Shown here: positions 7,152 through 26,060 of the stretch, one piece after another
Layout: each line of letters begins with the position of its first letter
Numbering within the stretch: the first letter of the stretch is position 1
IMG/VR virus record: IMGVR_UViG_3300043447_000372
Span: 1 to 26,635 of that record
Source: a virus
Lineage: Duplodnaviria; Caudoviricetes
Strand: one strand, 5' to 3'
Length of the DNA stretch: 26,635 nucleotides
Notes under the pieces: model-generated
Told to the model about the DNA's origin: nothing
The model's input: the letters and a program-made list of their open reading frames with translations, nothing else
The model's database searches: none
Position numbers and translations under genes: made by a program

Positions 7152-7484
7152 TTAGTTATTTGCAAGCACTGTATTAAGTAGTGCATTTGCGTCTGTTAAC
7201 TTAACTCCTGATGCTGCTTCAATAATGTCATAGACTGTTGGAAGATCAAGAATATCTTCCAAAGCATTTACATCCTTAGCTAGATCTGGATTGTACTGCT
7301 CCATAGCAATTTGTACGCATTCCATAAGGAGAGCCATTGACTTCTCGTTATCTTCTGCCACCTCTGCCACCTTTTCAAACTTAGTCATGAATGGTCGTAG
7401 TAATGAAATCTTGAGAGGTCTCACCTTGATTACTGTTCCATCCATGAGTGTAAGCTCTTTACTCTCATGTACTGTTGTTGCCAT
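7152..7484 (-). CDS. Tail assembly chaperone, short (G-like) form
   Basis: 110-aa acidic ORF between tail tube and tape measure genes; SD AGGAGG; paralogous to the N-terminal half of 7511..8218. Confidence 0.75.
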   Translation of the reverse strand: MATTVHESKELTLMDGTVIKVRPLKISLLRPFMTKFEKVAEVAEDNEKSMALLMECVQIAMEQYNPDLAKDVNALEDILDLPTVYDIIEAASGVKLTDANALLNTVLANN

Positions 7485-7509: not shown

Positions 7510-7518
7510 ATTATAGCA
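7510..7518 (-). promoter_or_regulatory. Extended -10 promoter TGCTATAAT
   Basis: Matches TGnTATAAT, overlaps the upstream stop codon, and lies 25 nt before the ATG at 7484 with an SD in between. Confidence 0.7.
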
Positions 7519-8218
7519 TAAGAGAAGGGTCTCTTCCGTCTTCATAGTCCAGACCCATCCCAATACCAAACCCTAACTTTTGAGCATTTACTCCCTGCAA
7601 GGCAAGCACATCATCTGCATCAGATGTTGCGCCCTTACTAAATACTCTAGCTTTAAGGTCTTCCCATTCTTTCTGCCCACCCTTGCCAGTTTCGGCATCT
7701 AGGTCAACACCTTGGATAGCAGCAAGAAATTTCTTTTCTGTATAGTCCATCTCTCTACCTATCTCCAGGGTTGCTATTAACTCTGGCATAGATAAGGATA
7801 GTTCTAGTTCTTGATAATCTTTCCATATACCCAGCAAAAATACTTCTGACTCTAGCTTAGCAAGATCAAAATCTTCCCAGGTTGTATTACTTTCTAATGC
7901 TTGTGTTTTTACTGGTTGCTCTGAACCACTATTGACCTTAATTCCTGCAGCAAAATCAAGGACCTGATATATACCTGGCAAATCAAAGTTATCTTCTATA
8001 TCTGACACTGATCTTGATATTGCTGGGTAATACTGCTTCATGCATATTCTGACACACTCAACCAAAACATCTATGGCTTCATCATCATTTTTTGTTAACT
8101 TAATTCTGTCAAAATTGGTCATAAATTCACGAAGATACTTAATCTTCAAAGGAATGATTTCTAGTTCTTCCCCGCCAAATAAAATAACTTTATTTATTGG
8201 ATATATTGTTGTTGCCAT
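7511..8218 (-). CDS. Tail assembly chaperone, long (GT-like) form
   Basis: 235 aa, directly after the tail tube gene. The first ~95 aa align with the 110-aa ORF and are followed by an extra C-terminal domain. Confidence 0.7.
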   Translation of the reverse strand: MATTIYPINKVILFGGEELEIIPLKIKYLREFMTNFDRIKLTKNDDEAIDVLVECVRICMKQYYPAISRSVSDIEDNFDLPGIYQVLDFAAGIKVNSGSEQPVKTQALESNTTWEDFDLAKLESEVFLLGIWKDYQELELSLSMPELIATLEIGREMDYTEKKFLAAIQGVDLDAETGKGGQKEWEDLKARVFSKGATSDADDVLALQGVNAQKLGFGIGMGLDYEDGRDPSLML

Positions 8219-19137: not shown

Positions 19138-19404
19138 TTAAGATTTTGGCAATCCGTCATCGGTTATGCCATCTTTAAGGTTTGACTTAACCTGTTCCCA
19201 CTTATGCAAAGGACAAGAAGCATTGGGAAGCTTAACCTTTAGATTCATAATACATCCACACTCTTTGCATTGGTGAGTAGAAGAAATATACTTTGGACAC
19301 TGTTTGCAAATATCTAGTCTTTTTTCGGCAATCTCCCCCTCAACACGACCTATGCTTTTATTCAAAAGGTCCCAAGGTCTAGCTGGTCTATTCTGTTCAC
19401 TCAT
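19138..19404 (-). CDS. Small six-cysteine putative metal-binding protein (DUF6171-like)
   Basis: RLDICKQC...QCKECGCIMNLKV...SCPLHKW; overlaps the upstream stop. Confidence 0.7.
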   Translation of the reverse strand: MSEQNRPARPWDLLNKSIGRVEGEIAEKRLDICKQCPKYISSTHQCKECGCIMNLKVKLPNASCPLHKWEQVKSNLKDGITDDGLPKS

Positions 19405-20245
19405 TTGGCTTATCCTTTATTCTTTTCTGATGATTTTTATATGGTTTCTGGTTTATGTGAATGCCCTTGAAATATCTTCTACCTGAATCATTTACTTTTC
19501 CAATATCCCCACCTTCTCTTTCTGGGTTTTGTCTTTCCCACTGAAGGTTTTCAGCACTCATTCTTTCATTATACAACAATTCTTCAGGAAAAAGCTTTTT
19601 TGCTGGAACAAGCTCAAAGTTTTCAACATAGAATCTTGGGATTGGAATAAATCCAGAAAGCCAATCACCCTTTTTGATCTTAATAATTTTATTTGGGGTT
19701 GTAACCCTAACGTTAAACGTAAAAGATCTTCTTAGATTATCTGACTCAACAACACCATTCATAAAGTGTAGGCCATCTATATAATGGTTAGGTGGCTGAG
19801 TTACAAGAATATTTACGTTGGGAGGAGTCTTAAGAATAAATTTATTTTCAATACTTAAAACACCATTTCTAAAGTTATTCAGATAAGATTGAATTGACTG
19901 TAGATTGTTAAACCCTTCAGACTTTACCTCAACTGGATTTTCTGTTCCGTCCCAGAATAACTCTGCGTCGTGTTGTGCCTTAACTACAAAGCCATACTGG
20001 TTTGCAATTGTTAATGGCAAGCACATAGAAAATGCAATATGATTAAACCAATCACGATTAGGTTGACCAACTAATGTTTCAACAACATCGTCTATATTGT
20101 ATCCTTGTTCAGAATAGTTATACCAAGCAATAGTATTATCTGGAACTTCATACCCTGGATCATTGATGTATGGCTTATTTTCTTTTTCAACAAACCTATT
20201 TTTTAATGAAGATTTATATTCTTCCCAAAGTGATTTATTGGACAT
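19397..20245 (-). CDS. DUF6065-like protein (dUTPase-like fold suspected), paralog 3
   Basis: RDWF...CLPLTIANQYGF, KTPPNVNILVTQPPN, GVVESD and IKKGDWL motifs. Confidence 0.7.
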   Translation of the reverse strand: MSNKSLWEEYKSSLKNRFVEKENKPYINDPGYEVPDNTIAWYNYSEQGYNIDDVVETLVGQPNRDWFNHIAFSMCLPLTIANQYGFVVKAQHDAELFWDGTENPVEVKSEGFNNLQSIQSYLNNFRNGVLSIENKFILKTPPNVNILVTQPPNHYIDGLHFMNGVVESDNLRRSFTFNVRVTTPNKIIKIKKGDWLSGFIPIPRFYVENFELVPAKKLFPEELLYNERMSAENLQWERQNPEREGGDIGKVNDSGRRYFKGIHINQKPYKNHQKRIKDKPNE

Positions 20246-20901
20246 TAGCTATAAAGCTTTCTCTTCCAAAACTTTCTCTTGTACTTTGAAAAAGGTGGAT
20301 CTGACCACTTCCAGAACTCCTTGTATGCGTAAGATTCTTCTTCATCTCCAAAATCAGACTTCCAGTCATCTCTCTTAATTGGAATAGCTTGAACAATTGG
20401 TGTTCCTGCAGGGATCAATCCGCTAAAACCCTTTTTGATAAAGAATGGAAATTGTACAGAAAGAGGAAACTCATCTGTATCAACGACTGCACTTAAGGAT
20501 GTGAATGGCAAATCTGCACGATTTAAGGGATGAACAAAAAGTGTACTATACCCTTTTGGAGTTTGCAAGAAAAACTTATTGATCCACTTGTATGGGTGTG
20601 GCTCTACATCATCTCCATAGTGCCAACCATCAAGCTGAAAGTCTGCATGGTAGGTGACAACTTCTGAAACACCATTATCTGTAAATCTTTTTAGCTCTGC
20701 GTCGTAGTATACATCAGCTGATGTTTTAAAAACATACCCCGTTGTTAATGCATCTAATACAGGAACACATTTTTTTATTGTCATATTATTATTAACAATA
20801 GGAGGAATATCCTTAAACCACTGAGGAATTTGTTTTACAGATGGCTCAGGCTTTACCCAATCAATTGAAACATCTTCTGATCTAAATTTAATTTTCTTCA
20901 T
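20245..20901 (-). CDS. DUF6065-like protein, paralog 2 (218 aa, MKKIKF...)
   Basis: IPQWFK, KKCVPVLDALTTGY, TPKGYSTLFVHPLNR and IPAGTPIVQAIPIKRDDW; start chosen by alignment with paralog 1 (MKLIKF). Confidence 0.75.
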   Translation of the reverse strand: MKKIKFRSEDVSIDWVKPEPSVKQIPQWFKDIPPIVNNNMTIKKCVPVLDALTTGYVFKTSADVYYDAELKRFTDNGVSEVVTYHADFQLDGWHYGDDVEPHPYKWINKFFLQTPKGYSTLFVHPLNRADLPFTSLSAVVDTDEFPLSVQFPFFIKKGFSGLIPAGTPIVQAIPIKRDDWKSDFGDEEESYAYKEFWKWSDPPFSKYKRKFWKRKLYS

Positions 20902-21163
20902 GATTATGTTCAAACTCACCCTTCTCAGAGCTATATTTAACTCCAATCCCTGGCTTCATTTCTAGGTCTGTTATGTCCACAAAAGTAGGATCACTTAAAA
21001 GCATTGCTGCAAGCTTTGTCTCTGTTCTAATAACATCTTGCACCTCATCGTCAAGAACAATAGCAATACTGTAAATCTTAACATCAGAGTGCATGCTTTT
21101 TGGTTCTTTTACTGAATCAACAGTAGGGCTAGACTTTTGTATCTTTTTCTTTTTATTAAACAT
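20888..21163 (-). CDS. Small hypothetical protein, paralog of 21893..22108
   Basis: AIVLDDEVQDVI...LAAMLLSDPTFVDI...PGIG; coupled to genes on both sides. Confidence 0.7.
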   Translation of the reverse strand: MFNKKKKIQKSSPTVDSVKEPKSMHSDVKIYSIAIVLDDEVQDVIRTETKLAAMLLSDPTFVDITDLEMKPGIGVKYSSEKGEFEHNHEEN

Positions 21164-21888
21164 TATTTAAACTCTTTTCTCGTCCAAAGCTTTTTCTTGT
21201 AGCTTCCCTCTTTTGTTCTGAGGTGTTTTGCAATCTTTTCACGTCTTTCATCATTAAAGATTCCGCCCCTCTCAACAAACATTTGCCACTTATCTCTCTT
21301 GAATGGATAAATTTGTGCAAATGGAGTTCCTGCTGGAATAACACCTTCAAAGTCACTCTTTAGGAAGAATGGAATATTTCCACCTAAAGTAAACTTATCA
21401 CTATCCATAATAGCACTTAAAGTCATAAATGGCAAGTCGTGCCTATTAAATGGGTGCGTAACAAATGTACTGTATCCTCTTGGTGTTTTCCAGGACCAGT
21501 AGGTATACCAAGTAAACCCTGTCTTTTGAAAACCAACTGGCCGTGGGATTGTTGGTCCAAGTTGTGGTGGACGCTGCCCAACAAAAGGCATAACATCGTC
21601 TTCTTCTATGTTTGGAGCATTAAATTTTATCTCTGTTTCTCCATTTTCATTTTTAATAACATAAATATCAAATGGAGTTAAAAGAGTATATCCAGTCATC
21701 ATGATTTCCATAAATGGGATGCAGGCTTTCATCCCAGCATTATCTTCATGTTCACTATGCTTAGGGTGTAGTGGTGACTCAAATGTTAACTCCCCGTCTT
21801 TCCACCACTGAGGTAATTCTGTTCTAATTGGACGAGGCGTTGTTTCTTCTATAACCTTTGACCAAGGAATAAATTTGATAAGCTTCAT
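21163..21888 (-). CDS. DUF6065-like protein, paralog 1
   Basis: LPQWWK, KACIPFMEIMMTGY, TPRGYSTFVTHPFNR and IPAGTPFAQIYPFKRDKW. Confidence 0.75.
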   Translation of the reverse strand: MKLIKFIPWSKVIEETTPRPIRTELPQWWKDGELTFESPLHPKHSEHEDNAGMKACIPFMEIMMTGYTLLTPFDIYVIKNENGETEIKFNAPNIEEDDVMPFVGQRPPQLGPTIPRPVGFQKTGFTWYTYWSWKTPRGYSTFVTHPFNRHDLPFMTLSAIMDSDKFTLGGNIPFFLKSDFEGVIPAGTPFAQIYPFKRDKWQMFVERGGIFNDERREKIAKHLRTKEGSYKKKLWTRKEFK

Positions 21889-21892
21889 GGCT

Positions 21893-22108
21893 TTATGCCT
21901 TTGCTTCTTCTATTGTCATTCCTGGTACTGTTGTTGGCTTGCATTTAATAATCTCAGGATTGAGGTCATAAAGGCTTCCCAGTAATTCATCAACAGTAAC
22001 TGTAATCTGAACTACTCCGTCAATACATAGAGCATATACATGTGCGTCTGGATCTACATGATACTGAACGTGCTCTTTTTCTGTTACAATCTCCCACTTT
22101 TTTGTCAT
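21893..22108 (-). CDS. Small hypothetical protein
   Basis: 71 aa filling the gap between neighbours; ALCIDGVVQITV...LGSLYDLNPEIIKC...PGMT aligns with the 91-aa ORF. Confidence 0.7.
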   Translation of the reverse strand: MTKKWEIVTEKEHVQYHVDPDAHVYALCIDGVVQITVTVDELLGSLYDLNPEIIKCKPTTVPGMTIEEAKA

Positions 22109-22122
22109 TTTTTTTGCTCTTT

Positions 22123-23208
22123 CTATTGTATTGTAATCTCGTCTGTAGATAATGACTGATTATAAGCACTATCTGATGCAATTATACCATAATTGGTCAC
22201 AATTGTAACTCCAGTGGCGTTGTGAACTAGGTCGCTACCAATTTGTGTTACAGCGGATGTATCAGAAAATGCCTTTGCCGTAACTGTAGCTGTTCCATTT
22301 GTTTTATTTGAGTTTGTAATTGCAACCTTGATTGCTCTAATGGCTGAAAAAGATGTTATAGAATCAAGAGTTACAGATGCAATTTCGCTAAGTGTGTTTG
22401 ATGCATACTTATATAACTTAAGATATCTTGGGTATGTATTTGCATAAGATGCACAGCTTCCTCCAGTACCTACACAAGGGTTTGTATATCCGCATGGGTT
22501 ATATGGGTTTGTAGCTCCACAAGGATTATATGGGTTTGTAGATGCACAAGGGTTATATGGGTTTGTGTATGCACAAGGGTTATATGGATTATAATATCCA
22601 CCTGAGCAACAAGAGTTATAATATGAGTAACTGTATGATGGATTTGTATAGCTGTATGTATATCCATACTTACAACTTCCGCCTGGATTATACATAGAAC
22701 ATGTATAGGATGATGCTGGGTTTCCAGAAACTGGAACTGTGGTTGAACATCCAGAACAAGGAACAGCGTTTCCTCCAGAACCTACGCAGTTACCGCTGGC
22801 CCCATTGCAGTTTCCTCCTGTACCAATACATCCACCACCTGTACCAACACAGGTTCCTCCAGAGCCACATGGGTTATAAGGGTTGTAAGAACTACAGGCT
22901 CCACATCCAGAACATGTCTCTTGCTTTGAAACAACAGACCACCAGGTGCCAGAATCAGAAACCCAAAGTGCAGCACCTGTTCCAACTCCTGGGTCCTTTA
23001 ATGTGATTGTTACGTTCTGATTTGTCATCTGAACTGTACGAATTGGATAGTTAGTATCTGCAGCTGTTGCTGTTCCTGCAGATGCTGACCAAGATCCTCT
23101 TACTGTTTTCCACCCTGAAGCAAAACCAGAGCCGAAGCTATCAGAGAACGATAGAAATGATTTCAATCTAGAAACTGTTACTTGCGTTTTTCTGGTTTTC
23201 TTTGCCAT
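22123..23208 (-). CDS. Putative virion adhesin: beta-sandwich (lectin-like) domain split by a 20-Cys repeat insert (361 aa)
   Basis: ATG at 23208 overlaps the fibre gene TAA. Flanks are beta-rich (FSDSF...GW...GSW, LWVSDSGTWWSV / YLKLYK, IKVAIT, YGII). All Cys lie in residues 99-252. Confidence 0.7.
   Translation of the reverse strand: MAKKTRKTQVTVSRLKSFLSFSDSFGSGFASGWKTVRGSWSASAGTATAADTNYPIRTVQMTNQNVTITLKDPGVGTGAALWVSDSGTWWSVVSKQETCSGCGACSSYNPYNPCGSGGTCVGTGGGCIGTGGNCNGASGNCVGSGGNAVPCSGCSTTVPVSGNPASSYTCSMYNPGGSCKYGYTYSYTNPSYSYSYYNSCCSGGYYNPYNPCAYTNPYNPCASTNPYNPCGATNPYNPCGYTNPCVGTGGSCASYANTYPRYLKLYKYASNTLSEIASVTLDSITSFSAIRAIKVAITNSNKTNGTATVTAKAFSDTSAVTQIGSDLVHNATGVTIVTNYGIIASDSAYNQSLSTDEITIQ
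22492..22599. repeat. Four imperfect 27-bp tandem repeats encoding xxT/YNPYNPC
   Basis: Units start at 22492, 22519, 22546 and 22573; consensus on + is acaagggttatatgggtttgtagatgc. Confidence 0.9.
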
Positions 23209-26060
23209 TATGCTGCTGTGTCTCCCACTACTATCCATGAGTTAGCTGCAATTTTTTCCAAAACAATTTCGCTGTACTGTACACGAGACTTGAATTGGCT
23301 ATCTGTTGCAACTACTGTAGTTGTTGCTGGTGTAGCTGCTGCTACTGTAATCTGTCCTGTTCCCATTTGGCGAATATTTACATATGTACCAATTGGCCAG
23401 TCATCGGACGCATCTGTTGGGATGCTTACTGATACTGCTGAATTGCTTGTGCAATGTACTGTTTTAAACATGTGCGTTGACTGAGCAACCGTTAATGATG
23501 TACCGCTGACAGAAACATAAGCAACCTTGTTGTCTTCTTGAACATAAGCGGTTGTAGCAACCTGTGTTGTGTTTGTAAGTGCTGCAGCTGTTGGAGCTGT
23601 TGGAGTTCCAGTTAGTGCTGGAGACTCTAGAGGAGCCTTATCATCTAGCTGTGTCTGAATTGCTGAGGTAACACCATTTAGGTAACCAAACTCAGTATTA
23701 GAAACATCTCCTACTGTAATTGATGAGGCAGTAAGTCCACCTACGCTAATGTCATCAAGTGATCCTTGTCCAAAGTTGACTGTGGATGTTGGTTCATCAG
23801 TTACGCCCTTGAAGAGTTTCCAAGTTCCTGCTGATGCATCACGAACAAGACCTACGTGCTGGTAAGTGCCGTCGTTCATTGCTCCAACAAATCCAATGTC
23901 ATTGATATTTGCTGTATTTCCTTCAGCAAGATAAATCATTGGATCTTCAAGTGTTAGGTCAGTCTGATTAATCTGTGTTGCTGTACCGCTAAAGGTTAAA
24001 GCTCCACCAATTTCAAGATCGTCAACAGTTACTGTTCCTGTGAATGTTCCTCCATCAAGAACGGCATCTACTGCATTATCAACATATCCCTTTGTAGCAA
24101 CTTCATTTCCTGCAACTGATGAGTCATTTATGTATACTTCATAACCAGGGTTTACATAGAGCATCATGTCTCCATCTATTGCTCCAAGCCCTAAACCAGA
24201 CCCACCTTGAATCTGGAGAGATACTCCTGTATTTGAAGCAATGTTCATTGATCCGTCAAGGAATCCGTAATCTTGCACTACTCCAGCGGTTCCAACAGCA
24301 AACTTGCCAACTGCAGTTATATCGTTAGCAGAAAAATTACCTGAACTGTCACGCTTTACTACCTTATTAGCAGTGTTTGCTGAAACAGCATCTGCTGATG
24401 CAAGTTTAGCCTCTATCTGTGTCTGAATCGCTGAGGTAACACCCTCAAGATAGCCAATTTCAGTATCTGTAACGTTTCCAACTCTCTTCTGAATAACACT
24501 TGTTCCCCACTTAATGTCTTTTCCAGAACCTGGGGTGAGGACTATGTTATCGTTAGAGCTTATTGTGAAGTCACCTGTATTATTTAGTGTGATATCTCCA
24601 GTAAATGTTGGAGAATCGCTTTGTGCTTTTGCATCAATCTGTGTTTGAATTGCAGAAGTGACACCATCAAGATATCCAATTTCTACCGAAGATACTCCAG
24701 ACACAACATCTTGTTTTGTACTTAGATCAATGTTACCTACTGCTGTGTCTACATATGTTGTTGTTGCAAGAGCTGTCATGTCTGCAACTCCATGAACGTT
24801 TGTAGTCTCTGATGCATGTGTTGATAAATCTGAAGATGTTGCAACAGTAGTTCCACTAAGCTTTAATGATGGAACATCAATTGATCCTCCAGTAATTGTG
24901 GAACCGTCAATTGTTGCAGTCTCTATTGTTGCAGACAATAATGTTTTGTTTTGTAGTGACTCTGTTCCAGAAATTGTAGCAATATTGGCATCTGTTACAG
25001 ATGTGTTTAATTCTGATAAAGTCATTGTTACTGAGTTATTGGCAAAATCAATACCCTTATTTGTAAGGGTCTGAGCATCACTAAGGGTTGCAACTGTGTC
25101 ATCAATACCAATTACGCCAGGAGCTGTCTCCCAGAGTCCTGTACCAGCAACTACTGTCTTTCCAGCATTAAATGGTGCGTAGGTAACTTCTGTTGTTCCT
25201 ACTGTGATTGCTCCAGATGTTGAGTTTACGAATCCGTACCCTGCATTTACATCTCCAGAAATAACTAGATTAAAGTCTCCAGCTTTGAACTCTCCAGCTG
25301 GTGAGTTATCTGCATCTGATGCACGAACAAGCTCCCAGTTAACCAGGGGTGATCCTACTACGGAAACAACATATACACCATTTTGCTTAGCATCTGTTTG
25401 ATCCTTGACAAGGACTCTATCATCTGCTAAAAGTGTTACTCCATCAATGACAAGCCCTGCCATTGTTCCTGAGTTAGTAAGTGTTGCACCAACTCCGCTT
25501 GTTCCGTTTGAGTATGATGCTGTAAGGGCTTCAACTGTGGCTGCTTTTACTGCCTCGTGAAAATTAATTCCTGAAACTACATTGTCAACGTAAAGCTTTG
25601 TTGCTGCTTCAAGGTCTGCTGTTGGTGCCTGAGATAGTGTAAGTGTTCCCGTAATTTCAACGTCATGGGATAGAGCAATGGTAATTGTGTCAGCTCCATC
25701 ATTGTATTCCTTGGAGATACCGTTTCCTGCTGTTATTGCTGATGCTACTGCATCCTGAGAAATTTCATCAATGTTTGGAATCTGTGAAGATAAAAGCTTT
25801 CCTGATCCATCAAGTGTTGCAACTCCAAGTGGCTGAGCAAGATCTGATGTTGGTACAAACCCATCAAGGCTGCCTCCGATAGATGCCTCATCAAGGAAGT
25901 ACTGAAGATCAACCCAGTGGTTAACGCCGTCACCAATCTTAAACTTGTTAGTATCTGATTCGTATCCAACTTCACCAGCTGCTAGAATTGGACCATTTCC
26001 ATTGTTAGTAGAGATCCACTGTGCTGCGGTTCCTCTACGCTGTTGCATTCTTGTTGACAT
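23208..26060 (-). CDS. Fibre-like structural protein (950 aa) with Mtd/hyaluronidase-type N-terminal anchor
   Basis: N-terminal QRRGTAAQW...LAAGEVGYESDTNKFKIGDG..W, repeated ATKxYVD and GYLxGVTSAIQTQ modules, Thr/Gly/Ser-rich; SD AAGGAG. Confidence 0.85.
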   Translation of the reverse strand: MSTRMQQRRGTAAQWISTNNGNGPILAAGEVGYESDTNKFKIGDGVNHWVDLQYFLDEASIGGSLDGFVPTSDLAQPLGVATLDGSGKLLSSQIPNIDEISQDAVASAITAGNGISKEYNDGADTITIALSHDVEITGTLTLSQAPTADLEAATKLYVDNVVSGINFHEAVKAATVEALTASYSNGTSGVGATLTNSGTMAGLVIDGVTLLADDRVLVKDQTDAKQNGVYVVSVVGSPLVNWELVRASDADNSPAGEFKAGDFNLVISGDVNAGYGFVNSTSGAITVGTTEVTYAPFNAGKTVVAGTGLWETAPGVIGIDDTVATLSDAQTLTNKGIDFANNSVTMTLSELNTSVTDANIATISGTESLQNKTLLSATIETATIDGSTITGGSIDVPSLKLSGTTVATSSDLSTHASETTNVHGVADMTALATTTYVDTAVGNIDLSTKQDVVSGVSSVEIGYLDGVTSAIQTQIDAKAQSDSPTFTGDITLNNTGDFTISSNDNIVLTPGSGKDIKWGTSVIQKRVGNVTDTEIGYLEGVTSAIQTQIEAKLASADAVSANTANKVVKRDSSGNFSANDITAVGKFAVGTAGVVQDYGFLDGSMNIASNTGVSLQIQGGSGLGLGAIDGDMMLYVNPGYEVYINDSSVAGNEVATKGYVDNAVDAVLDGGTFTGTVTVDDLEIGGALTFSGTATQINQTDLTLEDPMIYLAEGNTANINDIGFVGAMNDGTYQHVGLVRDASAGTWKLFKGVTDEPTSTVNFGQGSLDDISVGGLTASSITVGDVSNTEFGYLNGVTSAIQTQLDDKAPLESPALTGTPTAPTAAALTNTTQVATTAYVQEDNKVAYVSVSGTSLTVAQSTHMFKTVHCTSNSAVSVSIPTDASDDWPIGTYVNIRQMGTGQITVAAATPATTTVVATDSQFKSRVQYSEIVLEKIAANSWIVVGDTAA
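23650..24665. repeat. Three dispersed 26-bp repeats encoding GVTSAIQTQ
   Basis: 23650-23675 and 24418-24443 differ at one base; a more diverged copy is at 24640-24665. Confidence 0.8.

Follow-up and report, generated by a model that had tools for sequence, protein, structure and literature searches.

The window analysed here is the whole of a 26.6-kb virus record (26,635 nucleotides), in which the genes for the portal, prohead protease, capsid, tail tube and tape measure proteins and a class II ribonucleotide reductase lie on the minus strand. The closest relatives of the capsid protein are found in large Streptomyces phages (~43–44% identity), and the three sequencing runs that hold much of the window are freshwater metagenomes from two studies, runs with small shares of the window having been left out of this habitat reading. 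The source is likely a large freshwater siphovirus with a probably actinobacterial host. Before the tape measure gene, two frames (7152–7484 and 7511–8218) both match phrog_10504 and resemble a duplicated tail assembly chaperone. The features considered below are as follows:

23208..26060, minus strand: tail-fibre-type protein of 950 aa with an Mtd_N domain (Pfam and PHROG matches)
22123..23208, minus strand: gene of the ladder protein, 361 aa, its ATG overlapping the stop of the fibre gene (TAATG)
22915..23208, minus strand: N-terminal half of the ladder protein (residues 1–98), predicted ConA/CBM66-like beta-sandwich (AlphaFold pLDDT 95–98 over residues 21–100; fold search)
22903..22914, minus strand: basal C1-x-x-C2 pair, outside the ladder and lacking in many homologs
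22699..22896, minus strand: outgoing arm, C3–C11, with one NP rung, Gly-rich rungs (degenerate 21-nt repeat) and a CxxC
22672..22701, minus strand: apex loop C11-SMYNPGGS-C12, then KYG; likely binding tip
22453..22674, minus strand: returning arm, C12–C20, with a Tyr-rich segment, a vicinal CC, NP-rich rungs (27-nt repeat) and one Gly rung
22123..22452, minus strand: C-terminal half of the ladder protein (residues 253–361), predicted beta-sandwich (AlphaFold, fold search)
21893..22108, minus strand: s71, cassette protein of 71 aa with no family assigned (in 19 of 82 sequences scanned)
21163..21888, minus strand: phrog_7084/DUF6065-like protein A with a conserved C-x-P, retained next to Cys-bearing and Cys-free ladders alike
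20888..21163, minus strand: s91, cassette protein of 91 aa with no family assigned (comparison of related loci)
20245..20946, minus strand: phrog_7084/DUF6065-like protein B (PHROG match)
19397..20245, minus strand: DUF6065 protein (Pfam match)
19138..19404, minus strand: DUF6171 protein of 88 aa with six invariant Cys and two CxxC, a candidate thiol or metal helper

The ladder protein had no match in Pfam or PHROG, and an alternative in-frame ATG 30 bases upstream (371 aa) falls within the fibre gene. A fibre-like gene precedes the ladder gene in most related loci, and the 950-aa fibre protein, which matches head-decoration PHROGs as well, is likely the carrier of the ladder protein, which would place the latter on the virion. 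Some phages (L032, G005) possess two versions of the ladder gene. None of the cultured phages searched holds the ladder protein, the search giving one weak, partial match, and a search of prokaryote genomes returned two loci, both on MAG contigs. A 165-base RNA contig matches the insert exactly, a single contig being too little for a claim of expression. Run X2, from another study, covers the insert in a single contig with one synonymous difference, which rules out an assembly artefact at this locus.

The insert (22453–22914, minus strand) encodes 154 aa with exactly 20 cysteines, from C1 (22912–22914) to C20 (22453–22455), a count that the initial annotation had made and that run X2 repeats. 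The spacers between the cysteines had been described as mirroring one another around the loop C11-SMYNPGGS-C12, and the quoted loop, spacers and pairings are all present as written, with SSYNPYNP opposed to VGTGGS, GSGGT to GYTNP, VGTGGG to GATNPYNP, IGTGGN to ASTNPYNP and NGASGN to AYTNPYNP, and with the Tyr-rich segment near the tip lying between C12 and C13. From the C3–C20 pair inwards, the lengths of opposed spacers are 8/6, 5/5, 6/8 three times, 9/10, CxxC/CC and 15/20, closed by the 8-residue loop. The mirror stands as one of complementarity at unequal lengths (6 versus 8, 5 versus 5, CxxC versus CC) and leaves over the C1–C2 pair (CxxC), which has no partner on the returning arm; the opposition of Gly rungs to NP rungs is clean in five of the eight rungs and not in the other three. 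In the query alone, six of the eight rungs obey the length rule, a result equalled by 0.0003 of all 40,320 orderings of the returning arm, although this fraction is optimistic, the rule having been read post hoc off the same sequences, and it is the tests on homologs that carry weight. In composition, the insert is 19% Gly (29/154) and 10% Pro (16/154), with no His, Asp or Glu.

At the DNA level, direct repeats occur on the returning arm (27 nt) and, in degenerate form, on the outgoing arm (21 nt). No inverted repeat joins the arms, the only such pair (12 nt, 83%) lying within the returning arm itself, and the insert RNA folds no better than shuffled sequences (z +1.06), results that together rule out a DNA or RNA hairpin as the origin of the mirror. 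Because each arm has its own direct repeat and no inverted repeat links the two, a matched change of the arms needs two separate events.

A search in which the top 8,000 candidates were scored yielded at least 85 homologous proteins, a lower bound on the size of the family; a second search using the C-terminal domain as query added one more, and scans of viral contigs identified 91 loci with the ladder family. The flanks of these relatives are conserved and the number of Cys in their inserts ranges from 8 to 46; the Cys count is even in 130 of the 136 distinct Cys-bearing proteins and odd in the remaining six. Where the apex could be fixed by its motif (29 of 83 proteins had no recognisable apex motif and were left out), the arms had equal numbers of Cys in 34 of 54 proteins (13/17, 17/28 and 4/9 for three tip types). 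Seventeen of the 20 proteins with unequal arms differ by an even number, a difference that would need local Cys pairs. From a flank tree built by a quick method (144 rows, with two rows lacking the anchor motif dropped), we took 32 nearest pairs, disjoint and with the apex defined by motif; the Cys number differs within 19 of them. The two arms change equally in 13 of these 19 pairs, mostly in line with the earlier expectation that homologs would gain or lose rungs in matched pairs, independent variation of the arms not being the rule; with the largest pair removed, the proportion is 12 of 18 compared to a shuffled mean of 2.8. The six unequal pairs consist of three with an odd member, two unequal even changes and one that includes P0030 (17 Cys on one arm, 13 on the other), which may be a true counter-example or a repeat misassembly.

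The register of the arms can be followed through the mutual information of opposed spacer lengths, which among 17 dereplicated close relatives was 1.69 bits in the nested arrangement, compared to 0.76–1.07 bits when the arms were slid by one or two rungs and at most 0.82 bits in 500 shuffles. For 39 mostly distant relatives, the corresponding values were 1.47 (nested), 0.70–0.83 (slid) and 0.57 (shuffles), and the length code of the query fails to apply in this set. As read from the sequences, the mirror is general across the family and the length code is clade-specific. Nodes in which CC faces CxxC are common in the relatives, with P0002 possessing three CxxC units that face three CC units (the query has one of each), and in P0020 the arms are exchanged, with the NP rungs running outward and the Gly rungs running back. 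The nested hairpin appears well supported by evolution. In two loci (L055, L063) the ladder gene is split near the apex into two ORFs (~174 and 160 aa, 10 Cys each). Other relatives start with a Trp-repeat module (phrog_25859; L092:1417–3219, L093, L103) or with Ig/FN3 domains (L111, L114, L141), which might serve as alternative attachment modules.

Ten distinct proteins of the family lack Cys and form one clade in the flank tree, with Tyr/Phe rungs seen, for example, in L082:5626–7053, L084:2583–4172, L087, L088, L090 and L091. In the six longest Cys-free proteins, 7-residue YTxGxTT repeats dominate the basal quarter of the outgoing arm and 6-residue YTSNxP repeats the basal quarter of the returning arm, with 6-mers in the distal outgoing quarter and a mixture in the distal returning quarter; the Gly-bearing strand is again opposite a Pro-bearing strand. 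Since this clade keeps the mirror, the hairpin mirror, which is itself real, does not need Cys. We infer that side-chain complementarity sets the register and that Cys pairs lock it.

AlphaFold2, run on an 81-row alignment, assigned a pLDDT above 90 to the flanks (95–98 over most) and below 50 to most of residues 124–238, with confidence falling symmetrically from the base in paired ten-residue blocks (90/92, 68/69, 46/43). Short strands were predicted at the base on both arms (residues 105–108, 112–116, 246–248 and 252–255), and the limits of these strands alone do not fix the Cys register. A fold search with the flanks recovered CBM66 (Z 16.2, rmsd 2.5, 148 aligned), residues 116–308 of the Douge baseplate structure 8zdo_a (Z 14.4) and the receptor-binding domain of TM4 gp23 (Z 13.7). 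In Foldseek, the lectin and Douge fibre rows found with the predicted model were all weak. A BFVD search recovered six proteins from uncultured phages, all uncharacterised, at E 1e-11 or better, and then DUF7257 proteins and minor tail proteins of actinophages at E ~1e-3 and weaker. None of 81 family members matched the lectin, CBM or DUF7257 family models at E 0.01, the insert splitting the domain. The joined flanks are predicted to form one ConA/CBM66-like two-sheet beta-sandwich, and the model agrees with the lectin-like sandwich that had been foreseen for them.

Across 70 relatives, 133 of 251 Lys/Arg residues and 50 of 60 basic-aromatic-Gly motifs are in the apical fifth of the insert, and aromatic residues rise from 8% at its base to 19% at its apex; Cys is spread evenly (10–14% in each fifth). 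The conserved tip stays at the midpoint of the insert whatever the insert length. A basic-aromatic apex is likely what a putative binding tip would look like, and the earlier suggestion of a binding tip finds support in this concentration of residues, with binding as a prediction.

Downstream of the ladder gene, most loci repeat the order of the cassette, in which small proteins come first, followed by two phrog_7084 genes, in many cases a DUF6065 gene, and finally DUF6171. Of 72 Cys-bearing ladders with sufficient flank, 70 (59 of 60 distinct) are followed by a DUF6171 gene no more than 4.1 kb downstream, compared to none of nine Cys-free ladders. Four ladders with short flanks and seven incomplete or split loci were left out of this count, and a second entry in L029, counted among the 70, is an artefact. 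Because the Cys-free loci form one clade, the absence of DUF6171 from them amounts to one loss; the same loci retain both phrog_7084 genes and s91. In G005, the Cys-free ladder lacks DUF6171 and a paralogue with 16 Cys has DUF6171 immediately after it; G002 has a DUF6171 copy after an unrelated 14-Cys gene, and for the copies in L176 and L178 no Cys-rich gene lies within 1.5 kb. Among the best 80 of 602 DUF6171 loci, 44 include the ladder family (all with at least 8 Cys), a number inflated by a query built from ladder-linked copies, 19 have another Cys-rich gene upstream, 11 have neither, five are too short and one is uncalled, compared to a control in which 1 of 262 downstream ORFs was as Cys-rich. 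Six of the 11 with neither lie directly after a gene with 6–10 Cys. More distant DUF6171 relatives are present in 82 cultured-phage records; in five such phages, two of them with the gene in a tail module, no Cys-rich neighbour was found among the adjacent genes translated. Unannotated DUF6171-like frames are present in the cultured cyanophages Sf-FP1 (L181:4001–4177), PSS2 (L183:4001–4186) and S-CBWM1 (L182:4001–4183), within the tail module in Sf-FP1 and PSS2.

The predicted DUF6171 model is small (pLDDT 81), with no structural match above Z 2.6 among known folds and no match among solved-structure sequences (best E 0.32), and an Atlas search recovered only DUF6171 and unnamed clusters. A thioredoxin gene is part of the cassette in five related loci, absent from the query window, and in one phage group (L037:6917–7192, L038, L076) a thioredoxin (WCSFC) ends directly before DUF6171. 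In three loci (L029:5903–7195, L031:9772–11202, L049:9736–11178), DUF6171 is fused C-terminally to a domain of 350–400 aa that resembles the GlcNAc-transferase (PF11397) which other cassettes encode as a separate protein. Frequent additions to the cassette are a methyltransferase (22 loci), a GlcNAc-transferase (21) or a 2OG-Fe(II) oxygenase (4), for example L079:11916–12638, L033:8285–9229 and L034:11336–11926, which hints at modification of the tip or fibre. The unrelated tips that precede DUF6171 (L133, L136, L160, L162, L139, L148) include FN3 domains whose Pro-rich spacers hold PFFP or TPV repeats, together with a Cys-rich knob, and some end in what we take to be a Hint-like domain. Based on gene neighbourhood, the chances that DUF6171 acts on tip thiols would be about even, and a role as catalyst of virion disulfide formation would be less probable than that.

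The three paralogous DUF6065/phrog_7084 genes (window 19397–21888) share the conserved C-x-P and dUTPase-like motifs, and the sole match in a phrog_7084/DUF6065 search was a dUTPase at E 1. A role tied to Cys is ruled out for this family, since the Cys-free ladders keep both phrog_7084 genes. A phrog_7084 relative in haloarchaeal HF2-like viruses (HRTV8_36; L186:6860–7696) lies between a Gly-rich adhesin cluster and a ribonucleotide reductase gene, and 49 of the 50 records matched are haloarchaeal viruses.

The explanation that we favour, and hold to be reasonably probable as a whole, is that the ladder protein is a fibre-tip adhesin with a lectin-fold base, a rung-matched antiparallel stalk locked by disulfides and a binding loop at its end; the disulfides, the geometry of the stalk and the binding are all predicted. 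The base would likely dock on the fibre, and the two arms would find their register through the complementarity of a Tyr/Asn-Pro strand with a Gly strand, with no need for Cys. This register would align the Cys in pairs, so that likely nine nested disulfides lock the stalk, with oxidation occurring late, at or after lysis, and DUF6171 guarding or handing over the thiols. The stalk may reach at most ~20 nm in the query, an upper limit given by 61 residue steps along the shorter strand at ~0.33 nm per step, and would carry the basic-aromatic tip through the host surface layer, extending the reach of the phage. Stalk length would be tuned by separate tandem duplications in each arm, of which selection keeps those that match.

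Among the alternatives, the one that comes next in probability, though unlikely, retains the out-and-back stalk and has the Cys bind metal (Zn or Fe), either at four-Cys nodes within a chain (CC facing CxxC, or CxC facing CxxC) or at rungs shared by two to three chains, with DUF6171 as a metallochaperone. The T4 gp37 needle, in which trimeric hairpins are bridged by iron through His ligands, is a precedent, and both the frequency of CC-facing-CxxC nodes and the two CxxC among the six invariant Cys of DUF6171 would suit such a role. Virions also assemble in a reducing cytoplasm, and the part of the Jabs preprint available calls disulfide formation in phages an open question (10.64898/2026.07.24.740622). 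Most rungs, however, offer two Cys per chain with the next Cys 5–8 residues away, the residues that might complete a site (His, Asp, Glu) are absent from the query insert, one whole clade keeps the mirror without any Cys, and extensive disulfides have been reported in several phage virions. Somewhat less probable again is a structure that has the nested register and folds its polyproline-II/polyglycine-II strands into a compact bundle or solenoid resembling the gp38 tip. The Gly and Pro content of the insert and the 6-versus-8 spacers, which are unfit for a regular beta-ribbon, are consistent with such packing, as is the use of glycine-rich motifs in a polyglycine-II sandwich by gp38 adhesins, described in the available part of PMC12032242. 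Rungs come and go freely over a range of 8–46 Cys, as suits a linear element, and both the beta-strands predicted on the two arms at the base and the conserved tip at the midpoint at every length argue against the bundle.

It is improbable that the arms are independent tandem repeats with local, sequential disulfides, the mirror arising as a side effect of their expansion or of a hairpin in the DNA or RNA. In favour of this reading, the direct repeats of the two arms (27 and 21 nt) do expand separately, certain knots (CSCC, extra CC) have to form their bonds locally, and a few proteins contain rungs that lack a partner. Sequential pairing is nevertheless disfavoured by the matched change of the two arms and by the vicinal CC pairs, of which strict pairing would bond 48 of 97 to themselves, a half that is the chance level; spacers inside and between sequential pairs are alike (means 7.9 and 7.3), and a hairpin origin is countered by the absence of an arm-joining inverted repeat and by the RNA folding score given above. 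There is only a very slight chance that the ladder protein is a decoration or non-virion protein with the insert as a spacer or decoy, as might be read from the matches of the upstream fibre to head-decoration PHROGs and from the two versions of the gene in some phages. The stop-start overlap with the fibre gene, a predicted fold common to baseplate receptor-binding domains and the conserved basic-aromatic apex speak for the fibre-tip adhesin instead.

If the favoured explanation is true, the ladder protein represents a new way for phages to extend their reach. Paired duplications of the repeats would set the length of its single-chain rod, and the tip would be free to change independently of the base. 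Each disulfide is predicted by the pairing code (6/8, 5/5, 9/11 and CC/CxxC, with 7/6 in the Tyr version), and a stalk built on this code could find use as a rigid spacer for designed proteins. A wider claim is doubtful taken as a whole: that freshwater actinophages possess a length-tunable zipper of two repeats with up to ~23 nested disulfides, and that DUF6171 is a dedicated thiol-folding factor that also serves unrelated Cys-rich tips. The link to DUF6171 provides a named candidate, with natural controls, for the question, treated as open by two papers of 2026, of whether phages encode help for virion disulfides, and a thiol-folding role, if true, would make DUF6171 the first machinery of this kind known from phages.

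Among openly licensed PubMed Central papers and bioRxiv preprints, no paper was found on a phage disulfide-ladder hairpin, on Cys-rich fibres of freshwater actinophages or on the DUFs of the cassette; what related searches did yield was reviews and reports of disulfides between subunits. Judged against that literature, the ladder protein appears to be a real variant of the phage lectin-type adhesin, of a design not found there. The nearest known systems are CBM66 and the ConA-like CBMs of mycobacteriophages (Douge BppU/gp23, PDB 8ZDO; TM4 gp23, PDB 9N6A; DUF7257), to which the predicted fold of the flanks (Z 13.7–16.2) and the tail-module context are alike. The Douge BppU CBM (residues 116–311) binds M. 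smegmatis and mycobacterial glycans, according to the accessible portion of PMC13033339. The ladder flanks differ from these domains in sequence (7–12% identity) and in being split by a mirror insert of 150–400 residues.

The adhesins of the T-even gp38 and hafunavirus type likewise consist of a separate Gly-rich gene right after the fibre gene, with a variable middle and conserved ends, and in HRTV-8 the phrog_7084 relative also follows a Gly-rich gene cluster. In gp38, five glycine-rich motifs form a compact polyglycine-II sandwich (PMC12032242, in the part available), set with hypervariable segments on a beta-helix base, whereas the ladder protein has a predicted ConA-like sandwich as its base and complementary, Cys-punctuated arms as its insert. 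The Pfam and PHROG searches gave no gp38 family match for the ladder protein, and HRTV8_33 has no Cys and no nested Cys pattern.

Disulfide-cross-linked virions (Jabs, Milano, PD491P1, the gp39 tail tube) provide examples of many disulfides in structural proteins made in the cytoplasm; in the portions of these reports at hand the links mostly join subunits, and an intrachain ladder that varies in length is not described for any of them. The Jabs preprint, in its available part, leaves open spontaneous versus enzymatic formation (10.64898/2026.07.24.740622), and according to the available text of PMC13576161, a dedicated thiol oxidoreductase machinery is yet to be described in phages. A sulfhydryl oxidase or thioredoxin-fold carrier, as in the thiol-oxidation pathway of poxviruses and NCLDVs, was sought; the DUF6171 model gave no structural match above the Z value noted above, and a thioredoxin gene lies in the cassette of the five related loci mentioned earlier. 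Cystine-ladder peptides (theta-defensins, protegrin, hepcidin) have antiparallel strands crossed by parallel disulfides, as the putative ladder would, but with two to four rungs in under 30 residues. The needle of T4 gp37 is an out-and-back hairpin inserted in a collar domain, similar in layout to the ladder insert and different in being a trimer held by His-bound iron.

The bovine ultralong CDR H3, with which the initial annotation had compared the insert, shares the overall idea of a scaffold loop extended into a two-stranded stalk (inferred for the ladder) with a variable tip, and that part of the analogy holds. In the accessible part of PMC8602281, the bovine knob is disulfide-rich and the CDR has little over 50 residues. 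The bovine scaffold is an immunoglobulin and that of the ladder protein is ConA-like by fold search, and the analogy gives way at the cysteines, which in the ladder protein would run along the whole stalk and not in the knob, in 4 to 23 rungs, the arms being different repeats that have to expand together.
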